Shown piece by piece: positions 6,214 through 62,005 of a stretch of 64,000 bases of DNA. The notes beneath the pieces were generated by a model, which did no database searches, was not told the origin of the DNA, and saw only the letters and a program-made list of their open reading frames with translations. The position numbers and the translations under genes were made by a program. Source of the DNA: Escherichia coli. Lineage in GTDB: Bacteria; Pseudomonadota; Gammaproteobacteria; Enterobacterales; Enterobacteriaceae. The stretch is taken from assembly GCF_022846255.1 (NCBI RefSeq), contig NZ_AP025682.1. One strand, given 5' to 3'. Positions within the stretch are counted from its first letter, which is position 1, and every line of letters begins with the position of its first letter.

Positions 6214-7503
6214 ATGAAAGGCACTATCTTCGCCGTAGCGTTGAACCATCGCAGCCAGCTTGATGCATGGCAGGAAGCGTTCCAGCAATCCCCCTACAAA
6301 GCCCCGCCTAAAACTGCGGTCTGGTTTATTAAACCGCGCAATACGGTGATTGGTTGCGGTGAACCGATTCCCTTTCCACAGGGTGAAAAGGTACTGAGCG
6401 GTGCGACAGTTGCGCTGATTGTGGGAAAAACGGCGACGAAAGTACGTGAAGAAGATGCGGCAGAGTACATCGCCGGATATGCGCTGGCTAACGACGTCAG
6501 CCTGCCGGAAGAGAGCTTTTACCGCCCGGCAATCAAAGCAAAATGTCGTGATGGATTCTGCCCCATTGGCGAAACCGTGGCTCTCAGCAATGTCGATAAT
6601 CTGACCATCTATACCGAGATCAACGGGCGTCCTGCCGATCACTGGAACACCGCCGATTTACAACGTAATGCCGCGCAGTTGCTGAGCGCCCTGAGCGAAT
6701 TTGCCACGCTGAATCCAGGCGATGCCATTCTGCTCGGCACGCCACAGGCGCGCGTGGAAATACAGCCAGGCGATCGCGTTCGTGTTCTCGCAGAAGGTTT
6801 CCCGCCACTGGAAAATCCGGTAGTGGACGAACGTGAAGTGACCACGCGCAAGAGCTTCCCAACGCAGCCACACCCGCACGGCACGCTGTTTGCCCTCGGC
6901 CTGAACTACGCCGACCACGCCAGCGAACTGGAATTTAAGCCACCGGAAGAACCGCTGGTGTTCCTGAAAGCGCCGAATACCCTCACGGGCGATAACCAGA
7001 CCTCCGTGCGCCCGAACAATATTGAATACATGCACTACGAAGCGGAGCTGGTGGTAGTTATTGGCAAGCAGGCGCGTAACGTCAGCGAAGCCGATGCCAT
7101 GGATTATGTCGCGGGCTACACCGTGTGTAACGACTACGCCATTCGCGACTATCTGGAAAACTACTACCGCCCTAACCTGCGGGTAAAAAGCCGCGACGGA
7201 CTGACGCCGATGCTTTTAACCATCGTGCCGAAAGAGGCGATCCCGGACCCGCATAATCTGACCCTTCGCACCTTCGTCAACGGCGAGTTACGCCAGCAAG
7301 GCACCACCGCCGATCTGAACTTCAGCGTGCCCTTCCTGATCGCCTACTTAAGCGAATTTATGACCCTGAATCCGGGCGACATGATCGCCACCGGCACACC
7401 AAAAGGCTTATCTGACGTGGTGCCTGGCGATGAAGTAGTGGTGGAAGTCGAAGGCGTGGGCCGCCTGGTGAACCGAATTGTGAGTGAGGAAACAGCGAAA
7501 TGA
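6214..7503 (+). CDS. hpaG: Bifunctional 5-oxopent-3-ene-1,2,5-tricarboxylate decarboxylase / 2-hydroxyhepta-2,4-diene-1,7-dioate isomerase (tandem FAH domains)
   Basis: About 429 aa from ATG at 6214 preceded by GAGGAG RBS; two tandem FAH-like halves; first gene of hpaGEDFHI order. Confidence 0.85.
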   Translation: MKGTIFAVALNHRSQLDAWQEAFQQSPYKAPPKTAVWFIKPRNTVIGCGEPIPFPQGEKVLSGATVALIVGKTATKVREEDAAEYIAGYALANDVSLPEESFYRPAIKAKCRDGFCPIGETVALSNVDNLTIYTEINGRPADHWNTADLQRNAAQLLSALSEFATLNPGDAILLGTPQARVEIQPGDRVRVLAEGFPPLENPVVDEREVTTRKSFPTQPHPHGTLFALGLNYADHASELEFKPPEEPLVFLKAPNTLTGDNQTSVRPNNIEYMHYEAELVVVIGKQARNVSEADAMDYVAGYTVCNDYAIRDYLENYYRPNLRVKSRDGLTPMLLTIVPKEAIPDPHNLTLRTFVNGELRQQGTTADLNFSVPFLIAYLSEFMTLNPGDMIATGTPKGLSDVVPGDEVVVEVEGVGRLVNRIVSEETAK

Positions 7504-8966
7504 AAAAAGTAAATCATTGGATCAACGGCAAAAATGTTGCAGGTAACGACTACTTCCAGACTACCAATCCGGCAACGGGTGAAGTGCTGGCGGATGTGGC
7601 CTCTGGCGGTGAAGCGGAGATCAATCAGGCGGTAGCGGCAGCGAAAGAGGCGTTCCCGAAATGGGCCAATCTGCCGATGAAAGAGCGTGCGCGCCTGATG
7701 CGCCGTCTGGGCGATTTGATCGACCAGAACGTGCCTGAGATCGCCGCGATGGAAACCGCGGACACGGGCCTGCCGATCCATCAGACCAAAAATGTGTTGA
7801 TCCCACGCGCTTCTCACAACTTTGAATTTTTCGCGGAAGTCTGCCAGCAGATGAACGGCAAGACCTATCCGGTTGACGACAAGATGCTCAACTACACGCT
7901 GGTGCAACCGGTAGGCGTTTGTGCGCTGGTGTCACCGTGGAACGTGCCGTTTATGACCGCCACATGGAAGGTCGCGCCGTGTCTTGCGCTGGGCAATACC
8001 GCGGTGCTGAAGATGTCGGAACTCTCCCCGCTGACCGCTGACCGCCTGGGTGAGCTGGCGCTGGAAGCCGGTATTCCGGCAGGCGTGCTGAACGTGGTAC
8101 AGGGCTACGGCGCAACCGCAGGGGATGCGCTGGTTCGTCATCATGACGTACGTGCCGTGTCGTTCACCGGCGGTACGGCCACCGGGCGCAACATCATGAA
8201 AAAAGCCGGGCTGAAAAAATACTCCATGGAACTGGGCGGTAAATCGCCGGTGCTGATTTTTGAAGATGCTGATATTGAACGCGCGCTGGACGCCGCCCTG
8301 TTCACCATCTTCTCGATCAACGGCGAGCGCTGCACCGCCGGTTCGCGCATCTTTATTCAGCAAAGCATCTACCCGGAATTCGTTAAACGCTTTGCCGAAC
8401 GCGCCAACCGTCTGCGCGTGGGCGATCCGAATGATCCGAATACCCAGGTTGGGGCGCTTATCAGCCAGCAACACTGGGAAAAAGTCTCCGGCTATATCCG
8501 TCTCGGCATTGAAGAAGGCGCAACCCTGCTGGCGGGCGGTCCGGATAAACCGTCCGACCTGCCTGCGCACCTGAAAGGCGGCAACTTCCTGCGCCCAACG
8601 GTGCTGGCTGACGTTGATAACCGTATGCGCGTCGCCCAGGAAGAGATTTTCGGGCCGGTCGCCTGCCTGCTGCCGTTTAAAGATGAAGCCGAAGGCTTAC
8701 GCCTGGCAAACGACGTGGAGTACGGCCTCGCGTCGTACATCTGGACGCAGGATGTCAGCAAAGTGTTACGCCTGGCGCGTGGCATTGAAGCAGGCATGGT
8801 GTTCGTCAACACCCAGAACGTGCGCGACCTGCGCCAGCCGTTTGGCGGCGTAAAAGCCTCCGGCACCGGGCGTGAAGGCGGTGAGTACAGCTTCGAAGTG
8901 TTCGCGGAAATGAAGAACGTCTGCATTTCCATGGGCGACCATCCAATTCCGAAATGGGGAGTCTGA
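7500..8966 (+). CDS. hpaE: 5-carboxymethyl-2-hydroxymuconate semialdehyde dehydrogenase (aldehyde dehydrogenase family)
   Basis: 488 aa; aldehyde dehydrogenase hallmarks (ELGGKSP, cysteine active-site region); ATGA overlap with hpaG. Confidence 0.9.
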   Translation: MKKVNHWINGKNVAGNDYFQTTNPATGEVLADVASGGEAEINQAVAAAKEAFPKWANLPMKERARLMRRLGDLIDQNVPEIAAMETADTGLPIHQTKNVLIPRASHNFEFFAEVCQQMNGKTYPVDDKMLNYTLVQPVGVCALVSPWNVPFMTATWKVAPCLALGNTAVLKMSELSPLTADRLGELALEAGIPAGVLNVVQGYGATAGDALVRHHDVRAVSFTGGTATGRNIMKKAGLKKYSMELGGKSPVLIFEDADIERALDAALFTIFSINGERCTAGSRIFIQQSIYPEFVKRFAERANRLRVGDPNDPNTQVGALISQQHWEKVSGYIRLGIEEGATLLAGGPDKPSDLPAHLKGGNFLRPTVLADVDNRMRVAQEEIFGPVACLLPFKDEAEGLRLANDVEYGLASYIWTQDVSKVLRLARGIEAGMVFVNTQNVRDLRQPFGGVKASGTGREGGEYSFEVFAEMKNVCISMGDHPIPKWGV

Positions 8967-46264: not shown

Positions 46265-47668
46265 TCAGGCCTTTGCTTCGTTGAAGCGCAGTAAACGGAA
46301 ACCTGTAGAAGCATAGATCAACGCAAATATCATCGAGCAGAAACAGAATACACAGTACGGCAAGTAACTAAACGTCGGCACGCCTAGTGTTGTCGCCATA
46401 TACAATCCGGCAGCTGACCACGGAATAATTGGCGCGCTCATGGTGCCAAAATCTTCCAGCGTTCGGGCTAAGACTAACGGTGATAAATTAAGATCTTCGA
46501 ATTTCTTCATCATCAATTCAGATATAACAATCTTATTCAAACCATCAGAACCGGTAAGTAAGTTAATGATGATCGCTAAAACACCGCTTGCCAGAATAGC
46601 GCCAAAGGCACTTTTTATTTTGTTTGCCGCACTTTGTAATGTGACATCCATCATTCCTGTTCCCGTCAGGATGCCAGCAAACATCATGGCGCAGATAATA
46701 AATGACAGGAATCCGCCCTGATTATTCAGGCCGCCTTGTTCAAGCAGTTCTTTCACAGAAGGTAACAGCGTCGTTGAATCAGTGATCATCGTCAGACGGA
46801 AACCACTCATTGTGGCCTTAATACCTTCGGCCAGCGGGAAACCTTGATACAGCCATCCAACCAATACGGCCACGAACGCACTGCTTAATAATGCCGGTAC
46901 TGTAGGCAAACGCAAAAAGGTAAAGCACAGAACAATAAGCATAGGCAGTAGCGGTAACAGACCAAACTTATATAACTCTTTGAGCTGTACCAGCATCTGC
47001 ATGCTTTCTGGTGAAATAGAGCCCGTAGAAGTATGAATCATTCCCAGCCAGGTAAAAAACAGCAGGCTAATAATCGTTGATGGGATGGTCGTCCAGAGTA
47101 GATATTTAATCAGATCATAAAGTTTAGTTTTGGTTACCGCTGAAGTCAGGTTAGTGGTATCACTTAACGGTGAAAGTTTGTCGCCAAAATAAGCCCCGGT
47201 AACAATGGCTGCCGCCAGAATTGGAAGATCGGCATGTAAGCCGGAACCGATGCCCATTAATGCAACACCAATAGAAGCGACAGATCCCCATGATGCCCCG
47301 GAAACATAGGACAATACTGCGTTCAGAAAAAACGCTATGGCATAAAGCCATGCGGGCGCAACCAGTAACATACCGTAATAAACCAGCATCGGCAGTGTAC
47401 CTGCATAGCTCCATGTCGCGACCATAAAGCCAACGAAAATAACGATAAGTACTGGTGCCATCACCGCCGAAATCTTATCGATAATAAACCCCTGGATTTC
47501 ATCCCAGGTATATTTCAGCTTAGCCATTGCAATAATGCAGGAAAACGCCGCTGAAATTAATAAACAGACGCTGGCAGGCCAGCCCATAACACCGATGCCA
47601 ACAACCAACACGATCATCATAAAAATGATCGGTGTAAGCGCGACATAAAAACTGGGTTTTTCTCTCAT
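46265..47668 (-). CDS. NhaC-family transporter (Na+/H+ antiporter-like)
   Basis: 467 aa polytopic membrane protein; 12 nt upstream of the FAD-oxidoreductase stop (same operon). Confidence 0.65.
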   Translation of the reverse strand: MREKPSFYVALTPIIFMMIVLVVGIGVMGWPASVCLLISAAFSCIIAMAKLKYTWDEIQGFIIDKISAVMAPVLIVIFVGFMVATWSYAGTLPMLVYYGMLLVAPAWLYAIAFFLNAVLSYVSGASWGSVASIGVALMGIGSGLHADLPILAAAIVTGAYFGDKLSPLSDTTNLTSAVTKTKLYDLIKYLLWTTIPSTIISLLFFTWLGMIHTSTGSISPESMQMLVQLKELYKFGLLPLLPMLIVLCFTFLRLPTVPALLSSAFVAVLVGWLYQGFPLAEGIKATMSGFRLTMITDSTTLLPSVKELLEQGGLNNQGGFLSFIICAMMFAGILTGTGMMDVTLQSAANKIKSAFGAILASGVLAIIINLLTGSDGLNKIVISELMMKKFEDLNLSPLVLARTLEDFGTMSAPIIPWSAAGLYMATTLGVPTFSYLPYCVFCFCSMIFALIYASTGFRLLRFNEAKA

Positions 47669-47682
47669 AACTTTATTCCCTG

Positions 47683-49053
47683 TTAAAAGACTTTTACGCC
47701 ATTTTGCTGTAAGCGTTCCTGTACCGTCTGAATATCTACCTGTGAAACGGTAGTGTTATTTTTAATGGCAATAGCAGCGGCAGTCCCTGCACCTTCTCCA
47801 GTGACAATACAACACCCCATATTACGGATTGTCGCGTAGGCGAAATTATCTGCATCGATTGCCCGTCCGCAAACCAACAGGTTTTCAACTTGCTGCGGAA
47901 TCATTACGCCATAAGGGATTTGAAAATAGTTCGCTTCAAGAGGTAATTTAAGATGACCATTTCCATCTATAAACTCAGGGAATACCCCTATTGAATCCGC
48001 ATGACGTCCCTCATTACAAATATCATTTTCAGTTAATTGTGTTCGCCCGAGAATATGTCTTGATTCCCTTGTTCCCACCGTCATACCGAAGTTTTTTAAT
48101 TGTGCCTGTTCAAATCCTGGCTGGAATTGACGCAACGCTTCTATCGCCTGCATGGCTTGTTTGCGGCCCTCTATTTCGGCACGCGTCAGGTCAAAAACAT
48201 CTGTACAATCAACGGCAGGGATGCTGACAACGTTCAAGTAATTCGCATCACCATACTCGGTGACCGTACTCCAGGAACCGCCTAATGTCACATCTTCAGG
48301 AATAATTCCTGCCGCCTTTCCTTTCGCAAAGACTTTACCCAGATAAGGGCTAAACATATCGCGACAAGATTCATGAACATCATAAGACCAGTTTTTATTT
48401 TCTTCATCCGCCCCCCAGTCTCCATATTTAGGTTCCGTGCTCTTAATATTTTGCATGAACGCGTTTTTATTTATATTTGCGCAACTAAAAACGGTTGTCA
48501 TACACATTAGCTCTTCGCGTTCACGCTTAATAAATGGTGCTCCGGCAAACCATGCAATATCAGCATCGCCAGTACAGTCAATAATGACATTTGCCAAAAT
48601 AGCCTGACGACCAGATTTACTCTCTGTTATTACGCCGAGTAAATTATTGCCCTGCTTGATAACATCAACGGCGGTAATGTGTAGTACGCGGCGCACACCT
48701 GCCTGTTCAAGCATTGCATCCGCAACCAGTTTGAAACGCTCGGCGTTAATAGCCTGACTATTCGATTGCGGCTCAGGGCTGGACGCCCCCATTGATTTTG
48801 CCGTTTCTTCTATTTCGCGTGCCAGTCCACCTGACTCTACCGTATTTTCATGACGCCACCAGGCAATTGACTCGACGCCAGCCGTTGTCATCATTCCGCC
48901 AAAACAACCGAAACGTTCAATCAGCATAGTAGCTGCGCCTTCACGAGCGGCACTCATTGCTGCGGCAATACCCGATGGACCACCACCAACAACTAACACT
49001 TCCGTGGTTGCCAGCACAGGTATATTACGAGCGGGTTCCAGATAAAATTCCAT
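47683..49053 (-). CDS. FAD-dependent oxidoreductase
   Basis: 456 aa; N-terminal Rossmann dinucleotide motif VLVVGGGPSGIAAAM; paralogue of the gene at 58207-59571. Confidence 0.7.
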   Translation of the reverse strand: MEFYLEPARNIPVLATTEVLVVGGGPSGIAAAMSAAREGAATMLIERFGCFGGMMTTAGVESIAWWRHENTVESGGLAREIEETAKSMGASSPEPQSNSQAINAERFKLVADAMLEQAGVRRVLHITAVDVIKQGNNLLGVITESKSGRQAILANVIIDCTGDADIAWFAGAPFIKREREELMCMTTVFSCANINKNAFMQNIKSTEPKYGDWGADEENKNWSYDVHESCRDMFSPYLGKVFAKGKAAGIIPEDVTLGGSWSTVTEYGDANYLNVVSIPAVDCTDVFDLTRAEIEGRKQAMQAIEALRQFQPGFEQAQLKNFGMTVGTRESRHILGRTQLTENDICNEGRHADSIGVFPEFIDGNGHLKLPLEANYFQIPYGVMIPQQVENLLVCGRAIDADNFAYATIRNMGCCIVTGEGAGTAAAIAIKNNTTVSQVDIQTVQERLQQNGVKVF

Positions 49054-56379: not shown

Positions 56380-57906
56380 TTATTCATCTCTCGCGGTTTT
56401 CTCTTCAGCCGCAAGCTGTGTCAAAAAACTCTTCAATAAAATAAACACTACGCCGCAAAGCGGTAGTCCGGCCAGGATAGAGACCGTTTGTAGCGGCTGC
56501 AAACTCTGCGCATCAAGAAGATAGAGTGTGATGGCGACGATTCCAGTCATAATCAACCAAAATGCCACGTTCCAGAATGCCGGTTCACTCTCACTATCTG
56601 CCCGTTTTTGCGTCGCAAAACCGAGGGCATAACCCACAGTACAGTGTCCGGTAATATATGAAATTAATGCTATAGCCCCAAAAGCAACCAAAAACACCTG
56701 ACTTGCGGGTAGCTGCTCCAGTAAACGAGAAACGACAACGCCTCGCCCTTGTTCGTTAAGTATGGGAACAAAATCGATGACATGAGTTGTCTGCAACGAT
56801 AAGCCGAAATTAGCCAGTACCATGTAAAAAAACATGCATCCCAATGAACCTGCCAGAGCTCCACATACAATCAATTGCCGGATCGTCCTTCCTTTTGAAA
56901 TACGGGCGATAAATAAACCGAATGGGATGGCATACACGACCCACCATGAAAAATAAAATACGGTCCACATCTGTGGAAATCCGCTACGACCAATAGCATC
57001 GGTACTTAAACTCATCGCTACAAAATTTTGCAGCATCAGGCCGAGACCATCAATTGATTGATTAAGTATAAATGCCGTTGGTCCACAAATCAGTATTGCA
57101 AGTAGCATCAAAATGTCAGCACGAATATTCCAGTTACTGGCCCATGCCACACCTTTTTTAAGTCCAAAAAAGAGAATGAATAATGGCACTAGCGTCCAGA
57201 TAAAAATAACCATGACATTGATAAACTGCCCGGCAGGATCCAGATGAAACACATGGCAAAATACGGCAGAAATCATCGGCGTTCCCAGCGCCAGAGACGT
57301 TACCGCGCCGCCGAGCAAACCAAACATGTAGAAAAAATTCACACAATGCCCGCAAAAACCATCCGCACGCGCTCCCAAACATCCACGACATAAATCACTG
57401 ACCTTTAATGAGTTTGTTTTCTTAACATGCATAAACCAACCAATAGGAACGGCACAAATCAGATACCACGCCCATGCGGACGGCCCCCAATGGAACATGC
57501 CATAAGCAGAGGCCCAACGAGCAGCCTGAGCGCTTCCTGCTGTTGCGCCAAAAGGCGGTTGCTGAATGATCCAAATCCACTCTACAGAGGCCAGATATAA
57601 CAAGCTGCCCCCCGTTCCAGAAGTAAAAATAAGTCCAAGCCAGGTTAACAAGCTGAAGTCAGGTTTTTCTCCCGACTGACCTAACAAGATATCGCCATAA
57701 CGTGAGAAGGCCAGCCACAGACAACAAAGTACAACCAGAAAAATCCCGCCCATTTCCCAGGTTAAAAAATGATGTATTTTATTTATATACCGGCTGGTAT
57801 CTTGTGGATATATCGTCAAACACAGAATGATTACCGCAATAAATAATATTGCTGGGATAAACACATTCAGTTCAATCAAAGAAAAGCGTTTTTTTAAATA
57901 TTGCAT
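56380..57906 (-). CDS. BCCT-family transporter (betaine/carnitine/choline-type)
   Basis: About 508 aa from MQYLKKRF with AGGAG RBS; BCCT signature WTVFYFSWWVVYAIPFGLFIARISKGRTIRQL. Confidence 0.75.
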   Translation of the reverse strand: MQYLKKRFSLIELNVFIPAILFIAVIILCLTIYPQDTSRYINKIHHFLTWEMGGIFLVVLCCLWLAFSRYGDILLGQSGEKPDFSLLTWLGLIFTSGTGGSLLYLASVEWIWIIQQPPFGATAGSAQAARWASAYGMFHWGPSAWAWYLICAVPIGWFMHVKKTNSLKVSDLCRGCLGARADGFCGHCVNFFYMFGLLGGAVTSLALGTPMISAVFCHVFHLDPAGQFINVMVIFIWTLVPLFILFFGLKKGVAWASNWNIRADILMLLAILICGPTAFILNQSIDGLGLMLQNFVAMSLSTDAIGRSGFPQMWTVFYFSWWVVYAIPFGLFIARISKGRTIRQLIVCGALAGSLGCMFFYMVLANFGLSLQTTHVIDFVPILNEQGRGVVVSRLLEQLPASQVFLVAFGAIALISYITGHCTVGYALGFATQKRADSESEPAFWNVAFWLIMTGIVAITLYLLDAQSLQPLQTVSILAGLPLCGVVFILLKSFLTQLAAEEKTARDE

Positions 57907-57929
57907 TTCAGTCTCCTGAATGTTTTCAT

Positions 57930-58154
57930 TCAATGAGGACGAATATTTCGCCGTTCCTTTTTCATGTGTTGCAATTGTCGGGAAAGGCGTAAAGAAAAAA
58001 AGGCGCAAATAAGTGAAAGAGCCGCAATACAATACAGAGCTAAACCACGCTGATGCTGTTGCAGCATGAACAGGAATATCCCCAAAAAGAGGCCGCAGAG
58101 AACTGTGGTTATCCAGTAATTGGCACTTAAGTGCTCCAGGTCATCATCCCTCAT
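57930..58154 (-). CDS. Small two-TM membrane protein upstream of BCCT transporter
   Basis: 74 aa from MRDDDLEHLSANYWITTVLCGLFLGIFLF with AGGAG RBS 7 nt upstream; two hydrophobic helices. Confidence 0.45.
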   Translation of the reverse strand: MRDDDLEHLSANYWITTVLCGLFLGIFLFMLQQHQRGLALYCIAALSLICAFFSLRLSRQLQHMKKERRNIRPH

Positions 58155-58206
58155 GGTCTTTCTCCTGCAAGGCGCAGACAGGCTTTCAGCTCTCTGCGCC
58201 TTGTTG

Positions 58207-59571
58207 TTATGCCAGACGTACGCCCTGCTGTTGCAGCGTGTTTTGCAAATCAGGGATAGCAACCTGACGCACGGTGCAATTTTGCTGTAGCGAAACCACG
58301 GCGGCAGTACCTGCGGCCTCACCGGTAACGGCACAACACATCATGTTACGCATAGAAGTATGTGCAACTACGCCTGCGGAAATACAGCGACCGGCGACCA
58401 AAAGGTTCTCCACTTTTTGCGGCACCAGACAACCATAAGGGATCTGAAAGAAACGCCCGGTCGTTGGCAAAATGAGATAACCGGAACCATCAATAAATTC
58501 CGGGAAAATCCCTACACTGTCCGAACAACGCCCCTGATTAAGGACGTAATCATCAGCAATACGTATTTCCCCCTCAATAAGCCGTGATTCACGCGTCCCC
58601 AGCGTGGCACCAAAATTGCGTAACCGTACATTTTCAAAGCCCGGAACATAATGGCGTAGAGCGTCAATTGCCCATAATGCTTGCTGCCTTCCGGCAATCT
58701 CAGCTTTGGTTAAATCGAAGACATCGGTACAGTCAAAACCAAAGGCGTACACCATATTCATCTGGAAAGCCTCACCGCTTTCAGAAAAGGTCGACCAGGT
58801 TCCGGCAATCGCCTGGGCGTCACCTGGAATCACACCATCCTGTTGCGCGCGGGTAAAAATATCCTCCATATACGGGCTAAACATCGGGTCTTCTTTACCC
58901 GTGGTTTGAATCGTCCAGTTTTTGCCCCAATCCGCGTAGGTCGGCTTAAGTTCTTCCGCAACAAAACGGTTAAAGCGTGCCACATCAACACCTGCGCAAC
59001 TGAACATCACGGTGACGCCCATCAGTTGGTCCTTGCTCCGTTTCGTCCAGGGCGCGCCTGCACGAGCGGCAATATCAGCATCCCCCGTGCAATCGACGAT
59101 TCTTTTCGCCAGAATTGCCCCTCGACCTGATTTATTCTCGACGATAACACCGCATAACGTATTCCCGTCCTTGATCACGTCCACAACCCAGGAGTGATAT
59201 AACGGCTCAACGCCAGATTCCGTAATCATCTGATCGGCGACAACTTTAAATCCTTCAGTATCTATAACTTCGCTAATTGACTGAGGTTCTGGTCGTGTGA
59301 AGCCCAATGCTCGCGCGCGGCCTTCATATTCACGACAAATCCCTTCACAATCTTCCGTCCCCGGATGGCGATACCAGGCAAAACTTTCCACACCAACCTG
59401 CGTCAATACGCCGCCTAGTGAGCCGTAACGCTCAACAATCATGGTTCTGGCACCTAGCCGCCCCGCCGCTATCGCCGCCGTTAATCCTGCCGGACCGCCC
59501 CCGATAACCAGAACGTCCGTTTGTGCAATGACTGGCGTTTGCCGTGCACTTTCATTAATCATGTCCACCAT
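58207..59571 (-). CDS. FAD-dependent oxidoreductase (paralogue of 47683-49053)
   Basis: About 454 aa from MVDMINES; dinucleotide motif VLVIGGGPAGLTAAIAA; shared CTGDADIA and GVESxAW motifs with the paralogue. Confidence 0.7.
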   Translation of the reverse strand: MVDMINESARQTPVIAQTDVLVIGGGPAGLTAAIAAGRLGARTMIVERYGSLGGVLTQVGVESFAWYRHPGTEDCEGICREYEGRARALGFTRPEPQSISEVIDTEGFKVVADQMITESGVEPLYHSWVVDVIKDGNTLCGVIVENKSGRGAILAKRIVDCTGDADIAARAGAPWTKRSKDQLMGVTVMFSCAGVDVARFNRFVAEELKPTYADWGKNWTIQTTGKEDPMFSPYMEDIFTRAQQDGVIPGDAQAIAGTWSTFSESGEAFQMNMVYAFGFDCTDVFDLTKAEIAGRQQALWAIDALRHYVPGFENVRLRNFGATLGTRESRLIEGEIRIADDYVLNQGRCSDSVGIFPEFIDGSGYLILPTTGRFFQIPYGCLVPQKVENLLVAGRCISAGVVAHTSMRNMMCCAVTGEAAGTAAVVSLQQNCTVRQVAIPDLQNTLQQQGVRLA

Positions 59572-59588: not shown

Positions 59589-60857
59589 TCAGGATGCGCA
59601 ATCCGCATTGTTTTGAGTGATTTCATTGACTTGATTTTTACTTTTACGATTCACACGCTGGAGGACCAGTGCGGCGATAAGGCCGATGAATGCGCAAACC
59701 AACATGAACAGGAAAACATCCTGATAACCGGCAATACCCGGTTTGCGGTCGACCATATTGCCCACCATCGTGTAGCAGTAGATTTCCGGGAAATAGGTCA
59801 GTAAAGAGATCAGACCCGCAGCAGTCCCTGTGACTTTTGCCGGGATCCGAACCTCATCAATAATTGAGAAGAACACGGCATTCGCAGAGTAAATAAACAC
59901 GCCCAACGCAACCATATTCGCCAGCGCAATAGTGACGTAGCGCGACTCACCGGGCAGGAAGAAATAAACGGTAGTAAAGACAATCATGCCGATAAAGGCG
60001 TAAATCATAAAACGCGTGCGTGACGCACAGCGGTCGGCCAGTTGTCCGCCAATTAATCCCCCCATCGCAAATAACACATAGGCGCGAAGAATACTGGCAA
60101 CTGCCACTTCCGATTCGCCCATATGCAGGATCTGCGTGAGATACGGCGTGACCATGCCAAAGCCGATATAAATTGACCACATACAAAAGGTCACAACACC
60201 TGCCAGCCAAACCGTCGGCATTTTCAGCACGAATGCCATATCTGCCAGACGGAAATTCGCTTTATCTTCGCTGTGCGTTTCATCCTGACAAACAAACCAG
60301 GCTAAAACACCGGCCAGAATAGTCACTACGGAATAAAAAATAATTGTCGCCCGTAAACCATCAACACCTTCGCCAAATTTGGCAAATACCGGCACGGAAA
60401 GAAATCCCAGTACAATGGAGGTTAATCCCTTACCCAGAAACCAGTAACCGTATAAGCGACCTTGTTCTTCGCTGGTTCCCAGGGTACGAATAATTCGCAC
60501 ACACACGGCCCAAAACGTAAATACGGTTGTAACAGCCCAAAGTGCATGTAACAAACAGATCATGGTATACGAGGGGAAGGTCGCATAATAAAAACCACTT
60601 ATCCCGGTGGAAATTAATGAAAAGGTCATTAATTTACGTGCAGAAAATCTATCGGCAGCCCAACCGCCAGGTAGATATAATAAAAAGTTCACCAGACCAT
60701 AGGCTGTCATTAGAAAACCAAGTTCAGCATTAGTCGCTCCTGTAGCCTGCTGCATCGCGTCGTAATAGGTTTCCCGTAAATAAGGCAATTTATATATTGC
60801 ACTTCCGGCAATACCACATAACGCCAGCGTGATCCAACGTTTCCAGTTACTGGTCAT
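59589..60857 (-). CDS. MFS-family transporter
   Basis: 422 aa, about 12 TM helices; between the glycerol-dehydrogenase-family gene and the FAD oxidoreductase. Confidence 0.75.
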   Translation of the reverse strand: MTSNWKRWITLALCGIAGSAIYKLPYLRETYYDAMQQATGATNAELGFLMTAYGLVNFLLYLPGGWAADRFSARKLMTFSLISTGISGFYYATFPSYTMICLLHALWAVTTVFTFWAVCVRIIRTLGTSEEQGRLYGYWFLGKGLTSIVLGFLSVPVFAKFGEGVDGLRATIIFYSVVTILAGVLAWFVCQDETHSEDKANFRLADMAFVLKMPTVWLAGVVTFCMWSIYIGFGMVTPYLTQILHMGESEVAVASILRAYVLFAMGGLIGGQLADRCASRTRFMIYAFIGMIVFTTVYFFLPGESRYVTIALANMVALGVFIYSANAVFFSIIDEVRIPAKVTGTAAGLISLLTYFPEIYCYTMVGNMVDRKPGIAGYQDVFLFMLVCAFIGLIAALVLQRVNRKSKNQVNEITQNNADCAS

Positions 60858-60922: not shown

Positions 60923-62005
60923 TTAAAGTCCCAAATGATGTGCAGTTAAAATTGCACAAAGAACGTCCTGCGCTGTTACTACGAATGGCATATTATGGAT
61001 AGTTTCCCCTTCAGCAGTCGCGGCTTTAGCCACTGCCCGTAATTTATCTTTATTAATTTCCTTCACGCCTAACATATGAAGATTTGTCGGCAAGCCAACG
61101 CTATGGCAGAAATTGAGTACGGTTTCAATTTCCTCCTGTGGTGCGTTTTCCAGTACGAGCTGTACCAGGACGCCAAATGCCACTTTTTCACCGTGGTAGC
61201 AATGATGGCATTCCTCCAGTTGCGTCATGCCGTTATGAATGGCATGAGCTGCCGCCAGGCCGCTACTTTCAAATCCAATGCCGCTAAGATAGGTATTAGC
61301 TTCGATAATATTCTCTACCGCTTTGGTGCTAACACCTTGTTCAACCGCGACTTTTGCCTTATAGCCATCTTCCAGTAGCGTGGTATAACAGAGTCGGGCA
61401 ATAGCCAGTGCCGCCAGTGTCGACGCCCCACCTGCCATTGTGGCTTTTCCTGACGCCTGATTGGCTCTCGCCTCAAACCAGGTTGACAATGCATCTCCCA
61501 TACCGGCCACCAGCAGACGCACTGGCGCGGCTGAAATGACGCCAGTATCCATAATCACCATATCCGGGTTTTTCGGGAAAAACAGATATTCGCTAAACTG
61601 ACCTTCCGGGGTGTAAATTACCGCCAGAGAACTGGTTGGCGCATCTGTGGAAGCAATTGTCGGCACCACCACCACCGGAATTTTTTGGTAATACGCTACG
61701 GCTTTTGCCGTATCCAACGTTTTACCGCCGCCAATACCAATAACGACATTATATTTACGCTGATTAAATTTCTCACGAATTCGAGAAATTTCATTTTGCG
61801 AGCATTCACCACAAAAGATATCAAAATCTGCAGTAATATTTTCTTTTGCAAAGCTCTGGCTTACTCTGTCACCCACCAGACCGGTCACAAATTCATCTGC
61901 AATAATTAATGGTTCTGTTCCCAAACTCGCCGCATATGTAGCAATATTATCCAGAGAACCATTTCCCTGGATATATTTAGCCGGACTTATAATAATCTTA
62001 TCCAT
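60923..62005 (-). CDS. Glycerol dehydrogenase family (iron-containing/group III polyol dehydrogenase)
   Basis: 360 aa; GldA-like N-terminus MDKIIISPAKYIQG, GGGKTLDTAK NAD-binding motif; GAGGA RBS. Confidence 0.8.
   Translation of the reverse strand: MDKIIISPAKYIQGNGSLDNIATYAASLGTEPLIIADEFVTGLVGDRVSQSFAKENITADFDIFCGECSQNEISRIREKFNQRKYNVVIGIGGGKTLDTAKAVAYYQKIPVVVVPTIASTDAPTSSLAVIYTPEGQFSEYLFFPKNPDMVIMDTGVISAAPVRLLVAGMGDALSTWFEARANQASGKATMAGGASTLAALAIARLCYTTLLEDGYKAKVAVEQGVSTKAVENIIEANTYLSGIGFESSGLAAAHAIHNGMTQLEECHHCYHGEKVAFGVLVQLVLENAPQEEIETVLNFCHSVGLPTNLHMLGVKEINKDKLRAVAKAATAEGETIHNMPFVVTAQDVLCAILTAHHLGL

Follow-up and report, generated by a model that had tools for sequence, protein, structure and literature searches.

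An unnamed small membrane protein gene between cglE and cglC in the GimA island of Escherichia coli

Small membrane proteins that act on larger transporters, or are encoded beside them, are the closest described counterparts of the gene considered here, an open reading frame (ORF) of 74 amino acids (aa), hereafter the small gene, which lies between the genes of an FAD-dependent oxidoreductase and a BCCT transporter on the minus strand of a 64,000-nucleotide (nt) stretch of the Escherichia coli contig NZ_AP025682.1 (the window). KdpF (29 aa), AcrZ (49 aa), and MgtS (31 aa) bind larger transporters and stabilise or tune them (PMC12648545). The inner membrane of E. coli contains YjcH (DUF485, PF04341), a small protein of 104 aa for which two transmembrane (TM) helices are predicted. 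Its gene lies between acs and actP in a catabolic operon, directly 5' of the secondary transporter gene actP, which it overlaps by 4 nt, and cofitness data led to the proposal that YjcH/DUF485 is a component of ActP-like permeases (10.1101/072470). A small membrane protein of 80 aa, YhdT (DUF997, PF06196), has its gene directly 5' of panF and overlapping it; both ActP and PanF, the respective partners, are transporters of the SSS family. To our knowledge, the role of YhdT is itself unproven. On the regulatory side, the polyol operon for glucitol (srl/gut) carries gutM beside the DeoR-type gene gutR at its distal end, the small GutM protein having a hydrophobic segment in its N-terminal part.

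The small protein, with its two predicted TM helices and a gene directly 5' of a secondary transporter gene in a catabolic operon, follows the same plan as YjcH, and the first-pass annotation of the window had drawn the parallel with both YhdT and YjcH. The homology that such a parallel might suggest was not borne out: the window protein has no match to PF04341 at E ≤ 1, this family lies outside the top 25 families of the 40 members of the small-protein family searched against Pfam, and hhalign against YjcH gives a probability of 0.3%; PF06196 is matched neither by the window protein nor by the 40 members, hhalign against YhdT giving a probability of 1.9% over 15 columns. The likeness to YhdT and YjcH is architectural only. 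In addition, the gene of the 74-aa protein is separated from the transporter gene by a spacer of 23 nt with a ribosome-binding site (RBS) instead of overlapping it, the transporter is a BCCT (PF02028) and not an SSS protein and, unlike YjcH, most members of the small-gene family adjoin no transporter gene, their neighbours being a DeoR gene, gcl, or nothing relevant. KdpF, AcrZ, and MgtS are single-helix proteins of less than 50 aa with unrelated sequences and experimentally shown interactions, whereas the small protein has two predicted TM helices. The order of gutM and gutR is paralleled by the DeoR-small pair at the end of a gldA-dak-MFS operon in Vibrionaceae; however, GutM has 119 aa and one hydrophobic segment and its gene precedes gutR, while the small gene follows the DeoR gene, overlaps its stop codon and, in the E. 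coli island, has no DeoR neighbour at all. PF06923 (GutM) has no match at E ≤ 1 in the window protein and is absent from the top families of the 40 members.

The small gene, its conservation and its product

The small ORF occupies positions 57930..58154 on the minus strand, with its ATG at 58154-58152 and its TGA at 57932-57930, and encodes the 74-aa product MRDDDLEHLSANYWITTVLCGLFLGIFLFMLQQHQRGLALYCIAALSLICAFFSLRLSRQLQHMKKERRNIRPH; a Shine-Dalgarno sequence, AGGAG, is read at 58162..58166 on the same strand, 7 nt 5' of the ATG. The coordinates, the strong AGGAG and the two helices given by the first-pass annotation are all confirmed. The same-strand neighbours are the PF12831 FAD oxidoreductase gene upstream (cglE), whose stop codon at 58207 is 52 nt away, and the BCCT transporter gene downstream (cglC), whose conserved ATG at 57906 follows after 23 nt. 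This stop and this ATG are 300 nt apart, the small ORF taking up 225 nt of the interval; the gap of 170 bp initially reported had been measured to an over-extended, mechanically called BCCT ORF that starts from TTG 58032. In the ORF list the sole entry in the frame of the small ORF is 57930..58334, 134 aa from a GTG start at 58334, whose 60 surplus codons overlie the 3' end of the FAD gene. Since in-frame stops interrupt this extension 5' of the ATG at the orthologous loci of 4/4 other lineages, the 134-aa ORF is over-extended, as had been suspected, and was ruled out as the true product.

Comparison between genera indicates that 58154..57930(-) is almost certainly a genuine protein-coding gene under purifying selection. 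An orthologue search covering 5.8 billion proteins recovered full-length orthologues in E. albertii (81% aa identity), in Pluralibacter/[Enterobacter] lignolyticus (70%), and in two further enterobacterial lineages (73% and 67%). Frame, length, ATG start, and RBS are kept across five lineages (66-80% aa identity), and an AGGAG/GAGGAGG/AAGGAG equivalent is found at 4/4 orthologous loci. In codon alignments of the small ORF the proportion of non-synonymous differences (pN) is 0.10-0.20 and that of synonymous differences (pS) 0.50-0.78, with a ratio of non-synonymous to synonymous rates (dN/dS) of 0.05-0.14; synonymous sites are near saturation between the orthologues, and for comparison the neighbouring genes have a dN/dS of 0.02-0.08. 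The pattern of synonymous versus non-synonymous change in related genomes had been put forward beforehand as the test of this gene, and the expected asymmetry is present; the conserved frame with its low dN/dS therefore argues that the small ORF is protein-coding. Within E. coli, the locus is present in 246 of the 5426 complete genomes. Five alleles, chosen to cover the range of identities, are all intact and together differ by 13 synonymous and 3 non-synonymous changes; the exact 74-aa protein occurs on at least 1000 contigs, and the 336-nt region of the small ORF is 100% identical in strain LF82.

The product is predicted to be a helical-hairpin inner-membrane protein, in which an acidic N-terminus is followed by TM1 (~15-31), a 7-residue loop, TM2 (~39-56), and a basic C-terminal tail, with the motif H8/N12-Y13-W14/T17 at the start of TM1. 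The AlphaFold2 model, built from a 40-sequence alignment, has helices at residues 3-32 and 38-71 and a mean pLDDT of 72.6. The family mean net charge is +3.3 for the C-terminal tail and -0.6 for the loop, and hydropathy agrees with a membrane hairpin; on the positive-inside rule, the basic tail and the short, slightly acidic loop point to an N-in/C-in topology with both termini in the cytoplasm.

Searched exhaustively with a HMMER profile, 1.84 billion representatives gave just 12 proteins at E ≤ 1e-3, two of which (P0017 and P0022) are translated tandem repeats and were rejected as relatives. A second profile search raised the family to about 50 clusters, whose members measure 72-86 aa and come from Escherichia, Pluralibacter, Serratia, Vibrio, and Photobacterium, and homologues with the same two-helix layout are recognisable down to ~30% identity in two orders. 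In the family alignment N12, Y13, W14, and T17 are invariant and H8, L24, and L57 nearly so, conservation being densest in TM1 and the N-terminal interface. No curated Pfam cutoff is reached by any of the 40 members, the best match of the window protein being DUF4131 with 18.8 bits against a cutoff of 31.6; the same protein matches 0 NCBIfam families and 0 PHROGs, and a Foldseek comparison of the AlphaFold2 hairpin with the PDB returned generic helical hairpins and designed bundles only, all at E > 1. As judged from these alignments, the small gene is the founder of an uncurated family whose motif is H-x-x-x-N-Y-W-x-x-T; its members are distributed in Enterobacterales and Vibrionaceae, mostly within catabolic clusters for glycerol, dihydroxyacetone, or glyoxylate.

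The gene had been described as unannotated, which holds for part of the genomes: the Prokaryotic Genome Annotation Pipeline (PGAP) calls exactly the 74-aa coding sequence as the RefSeq 'hypothetical protein' WP_001204018.1 in LF82 and others, and makes no call for the intact ORF in other complete E. coli genomes, e.g., Trh52 and Ecol_AZ159. The JGI label on the orthologue P0005, 'PTS glucose/maltose/N-acetylglucosamine-specific IIC component', is a misannotation. A literature search by protein accession, locus tag, and cglC/cglE found no paper on the small gene. A reading of the locus as an antisense or type-I-toxin gene was rejected, the 74-aa, two-TM, in-operon layout being unsuitable and the single plus-strand promoter-like site within the ORF (58120-58147) not exceeding chance expectation.

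A T7 homopolymer (A7 on the plus strand) is located at 57995..58001 on the minus strand, inside the small ORF at codons Phe52-Ser54, and the loss of one T generates a 63-aa allele (P0069) without the basic tail, recorded on 348 mostly draft contigs. Among the 246 complete genomes, an exact T6 match occurs in 3 versus an exact T7 match in 146, and widespread pseudogenisation was rejected on this count; the T6 allele could represent one lineage, phase variation, or a homopolymer sequencing error. A programmed frameshift at the T7 run, fusing the helical hairpin to the BCCT protein, was also rejected because the T-run is missing in three orthologues and the open frame upstream of the BCCT gene is not conserved.

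The GimA operon and its intercistronic RNA hairpin

The window contains the GimA island of extraintestinal pathogenic E. coli, which has been described as 14 ORFs in the four operons ptnIPKC, cglDTEC, gcxKRCI, and ibeRAT (PMC2878320). Its gene content comprises dhaKL(M), gldA-MFS-FAD-small-BCCT, glxK-glxR-hyi-gcl, and a DhaR-like sigma-54 activator, after which come a 456-aa FAD-oxidoreductase paralogue (IbeA), an NhaC-type transporter, a LysR gene (hypT), and iadA; in the syntenic LF82 island the PGAP names are ibeA, nhaC, dhaR, iraD (yjiD), and hypT (yjiE). Both the placement at yjiD (iraD)-yjiE (hypT) and the ptn/dhaKLM, cgl, gcx, and ibeRAT modules of GimA are found. The published gene list has nothing named between cglE and cglC (PMC2878320), and the small gene is the unnamed fifth gene of the GimA2 operon, in the order cglD-cglT-cglE-small-cglC.

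All the genes of this operon are on the minus strand. The first, cglD (60923..62005), encodes a glycerol dehydrogenase of the Fe-ADH type and is followed by cglT (59589..60857), an MFS transporter gene according to Pfam, whose product is a full-length homologue of the MFS protein of a Vibrio small-gene cluster (28% identity, E 4e-52). The gene cglE (58207..59571) encodes the 454-aa FAD-dependent oxidoreductase (PF12831, E 2e-97), with the same start as called by PGAP in LF82 and E. coli 2022H047; CglE and IbeA are paralogues with 51% identity. The last gene, cglC (56380..57906, from the conserved ATG), encodes a 508-aa CaiT-like BCCT (PF02028, E 3.8e-115) and has its own RBS, AGGAGA, at 57917-57912; its best NCBIfam match is CaiT, with 386 bits, under the cutoff of 541. 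The mechanically called BCCT ORF, of 550 aa, runs over the small ORF in a different frame. This frame is open for 42 codons 5' of the true ATG (57907-58032, minus strand) and for 11, 7, 25, and 71 codons in orthologues, and this opening is thus not conserved.

The window BCCT lacks five residues (MTFLV) after codon 58 (~57725-57735) in comparison with the 2022H047 allele, an in-frame deletion between two FLV repeats in a predicted TM segment, which may impair the transporter of this strain; 15/15 of the E. coli matches listed are 3416 nt long where the query has 3401 nt, in agreement with this difference of 15 nt. The paralogous FAD-NhaC pair ibeA-ibeT (46265-49053, minus strand) has a gap of 14 nt, without a small ORF in between. 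Decay of cgl-type operons is also observed, with gldA frameshifted in E. coli 2022H047 (locus L001, 10640-11721) and the MFS gene in Trh52 (L033, 3505-3816), and in the lineage of loci L005 and L006 the FAD gene is in three pieces (6584-7945) and the BCCT ATG is changed to ATA (8267), the small ORF being intact.

Between the cglE stop and the RBS of the small ORF, an RNA hairpin is located at 58168..58203 (minus strand), with 14-nt arms at 58168-58181 and 58190-58203, a loop of 8 nt, a ΔG of -24.8 kcal/mol (z -2.9), and no U-tract after it. A stable hairpin with the same placement is present in 6/6 lineages of the clade with this gene order, clade A (-17 to -24 kcal/mol, z -2.5 to -5.3), followed by a U-tract in 0/6, and its stems diverge in sequence, being GGGCGCC/GGCGCCC in Pluralibacter and CAGGGAAG/CTTCCCTG in lineage L010. 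An Rfam search of the intergenic spacers gave no match at E ≤ 1, and a REP-type repeat was rejected because the hairpin is unique within the window. The stretch that separates the small ORF from cglC gave no promoter or terminator signal above shuffle expectation. Probably the hairpin acts in mRNA processing or stability, or as a weak attenuator, thereby delimiting small-cglC as a distal expression unit.

Genomic contexts of the family

The gene order of the window, gldA-MFS-FAD-(RNA hairpin)-small-BCCT, is shared by the six lineages of clade A, which includes Escherichia, Pluralibacter, two other enterobacterial lineages, and P0015 at 39% identity. The first-pass annotation had placed the gene within a recurring theme of small proteins encoded upstream of transporters, and had proposed to look for it beside BCCT genes in other genomes; it is found there in six lineages of one clade, with the order upstream of the BCCT gene kept, and the theme does not extend to the whole family. 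The spacer between the small ORF and the BCCT gene is 23 nt in 3/5 full-length lineages; in L005 the BCCT ATG is lost, L007 carries an insertion, and L010 has 34 nt on a contig that ends 60 nt into the next gene. In L007 the BCCT gene has a GTG start and keeps its AGGAGA, and the ends of the inserted element resemble an ERIC/IRU repeat.

Three lineages show a Serratia-type arrangement, (Fe-S proteins)-DeoR-small-gcl-hyi-glxR-DhaR-like, in which a CglC orthologue (56-62%) lies further on in 2/3 and is followed by a CglE orthologue (80%) in Serratia sp. L9; the small gene and the CglC/CglE orthologues share a ~10-kb island in Serratia. In this strain (CP192591.1, L031 10600-18500) gcl, glxR, the dhaR-like gene, and the BCCT gene appear split by frameshifts, probably a homopolymer sequencing error rather than biology. 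In four Vibrionaceae lineages, dhaL-dhaK is divergent and followed by gldA-dak-MFS-ZnADH-(274-aa protein)-DeoR-small; the 274-aa protein, without Pfam match, is conserved between the Zn-ADH and DeoR genes (L017 5381-6205; L019, L022, and L023). Vibrio sp. ES.051 has the DeoR-small pair in a different wider context. An MFS gene is present in clade A and in Vibrio and absent in Serratia. In 7/8 DeoR-linked lineages the DeoR stop overlaps the start of the small ORF (ATGA or TAATG). The recurrent themes of the family are clusters for C2/C3 polyol and carbonyl catabolism and coupling to a DeoR regulator.

Possible roles and implications

The reading tentatively favoured here, by analogy with KdpF, AcrZ, and MgtS and with YjcH/DUF485, is that the product is a small accessory membrane subunit that docks onto a larger membrane protein encoded in the same cluster. 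The product has less than 100 aa and two predicted TM helices, its gene is on the same strand 23 nt 5' of cglC, this order is kept in six lineages, and in Serratia the shared island with CglC and CglE orthologues also speaks for a link to cglC; the concentration of conservation in TM1 and its cytoplasmic entrance suggests a protein-protein contact in or at the membrane. Docking would occur via TM1 and the juxtamembrane NYW motif and would stabilise the partner or tune its activity. In Escherichia and Pluralibacter the partner would most likely be the CaiT-like BCCT CglC, the small gene and cglC together forming a distal unit of expression 3' of the structurally conserved RNA hairpin; in other lineages a different carrier may take this place, e.g., a CglT-like MFS protein in Vibrio, or the small protein may additionally communicate with the co-translated DeoR protein.

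Several observations weigh against an accessory subunit. No one transporter family accompanies all members, the MFS gene being absent near the Serratia gene and the BCCT gene in Vibrio, and across the homologues co-occurrence with a single transporter family is not found. BCCT adjacency is a minority pattern family-wide, limited to clade A: the fetched flanks of the four Vibrionaceae lineages contain neither a BCCT nor a PF12831 gene, no BCCT gene was found in the fetched flanks of 10 Vibrionaceae loci, and at seven Vibrio/Photobacterium loci the small gene is an orphan. In Serratia the BCCT gene starts ~6.6 kb from the small gene, and in L007 (8226-8446) a ~195-nt insertion separates the two genes, so that tight coupling is dispensable. 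Moreover, the paralogous ibeA-ibeT pair of the same island has no such small ORF, and no homology to known accessory-subunit families was detected by Pfam on the 40 members or by hhalign against YhdT and YjcH. Because BCCT adjacency is confined to clade A, the idea of a BCCT accessory is plausible locally and not family-wide, and cooperation with the adjacent transporter is a plausible hypothesis for the Escherichia clade only.

The DeoR-small pair is the most recurrent adjacency of the family (three Serratia-type and four Vibrionaceae lineages and Vibrio sp. ES.051, in three wider contexts), and the small protein could be the membrane-tethered partner of a DeoR-type repressor, a co-regulator or sensor that would tie the activity of the repressor to the membrane, e.g., by sequestering it or by signalling the state of a transporter or substrate; its corollary is that the Escherichia clade lost the DeoR gene and kept the small gene beside cglC, with a logic likened to PtsG-Mlc or GutM/GutR. 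The overlapping stop and start codons imply translational coupling and roughly equimolar synthesis, and the conserved acidic N-terminal helix and the basic tail are predicted to face the cytoplasm, where a soluble regulator could bind. However, such overlaps are common in operons without implying a complex, the seven orphan members adjoin no regulator, Pfam gives no sequence match to GutM or other regulator-partner families, and the clade A island, whose regulator is the sigma-54 DhaR-like IbeR, has no DeoR gene although its small gene is under purifying selection; on balance this role, the main alternative to the accessory subunit, is rather doubtful. Its generalisation to the whole family, as unrecognised membrane-embedded signalling adaptors co-translated with cytosolic DeoR repressors, whose invariant H...NYW..T interface on the cytoplasmic side would couple the repressor to the state of the transporters or to a membrane-permeant C2/C3 carbonyl metabolite and which would have been rewired onto CglC in GimA, must be regarded as unlikely. 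A similarly low probability is given to a self-sufficient, homo-oligomeric hairpin that would work as a pore, a channel, or a membrane-stress protein for C2/C3 metabolites (glycerol, dihydroxyacetone, glycolaldehyde, and glyoxylate). No gene is found beside every member, several of which are orphans, and the sole common theme is C2/C3 carbonyl and polyol metabolism (gldA, dhaKL/dak, and gcl-hyi-glxR); a protein of ~75 aa with two TM helices, N-in/C-in topology, and a basic C-terminal tail resembles class II holins and further oligomeric hairpin proteins, and the Pfam family 8xMP (octameric membrane protein) is matched weakly, below cutoff, by 3/40 members, with a best E of 0.004. Against a pore, the TM helices of the E. 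coli protein contain no polar or charged residues to line a pore except T16/T17 and C20, and Foldseek found generic hairpins only (E > 1); holin PHROGs are matched by no more than 2-3/40 members at E 0.01-0.08, and the gene lies in a metabolic operon without phage genes around.

A very unlikely role is that of a membrane anchor for the soluble CglE, e.g., for passing electrons to quinones or for siting the enzyme by the transporters. The small gene directly follows cglE in six lineages, CglE has no TM segment and an N-terminus with the Rossmann FAD-binding fold, and the small protein is predicted to have its two tails in the cytoplasm; yet the conserved RNA hairpin divides the two cistrons and the small gene is closer to cglC, the Serratia CglE orthologue is ~8 kb off, beside a BCCT gene and without a small gene, the FAD enzyme is not in the Vibrio clusters, and the paralogue IbeA has no such partner. 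Furthermore, no haem- or quinone-binding motif stands out, and the sole conserved His, H8, is outside the membrane. The last explanation is a non-functional or decaying ORF conserved only by linkage in a recently transferred island, which is hardly credible. It would agree with the reductive evolution of GimA that is named in the title of its description (PMC2878320), with the pseudogenes that neighbour the small gene in some strains (gldA in L001, MFS in L033, and FAD in L005), and with the T6 frameshift allele and the frequent lack of a PGAP call. It is contradicted by a dN/dS of ~0.1 at saturated dS across genera, by homologues in two orders that keep length and motif down to ~30% identity, by the rarity of the exact frameshift allele in complete genomes (3/246), and by the intact ORF where cglE is broken.

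GimA carries ibeA and is studied as a determinant of meningitis, of avian colibacillosis, and of invasion by adherent-invasive E. coli (AIEC). With a conserved fifth cgl gene, the list of GimA parts on which knock-outs and transcript maps are based has to be corrected, and deletions of 'cglE' or 'cglC', as well as polar insertions, may also strike the small gene. Nothing is overturned by this gene, small accessory membrane proteins in transporter operons being already established; it defines a new family of small membrane proteins, with about 50 sequence clusters and a sharp invariant motif, and draws attention to inconsistent RefSeq annotation, one identical intact ORF having a call in only part of the E. 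coli genomes. Two concrete partner hypotheses are offered, the BCCT/MFS carrier and the DeoR regulator, and should the reading as a DeoR adaptor prove true, this virulence-associated metabolic island would contain, in the small protein, a regulatory or transport component that had been overlooked.

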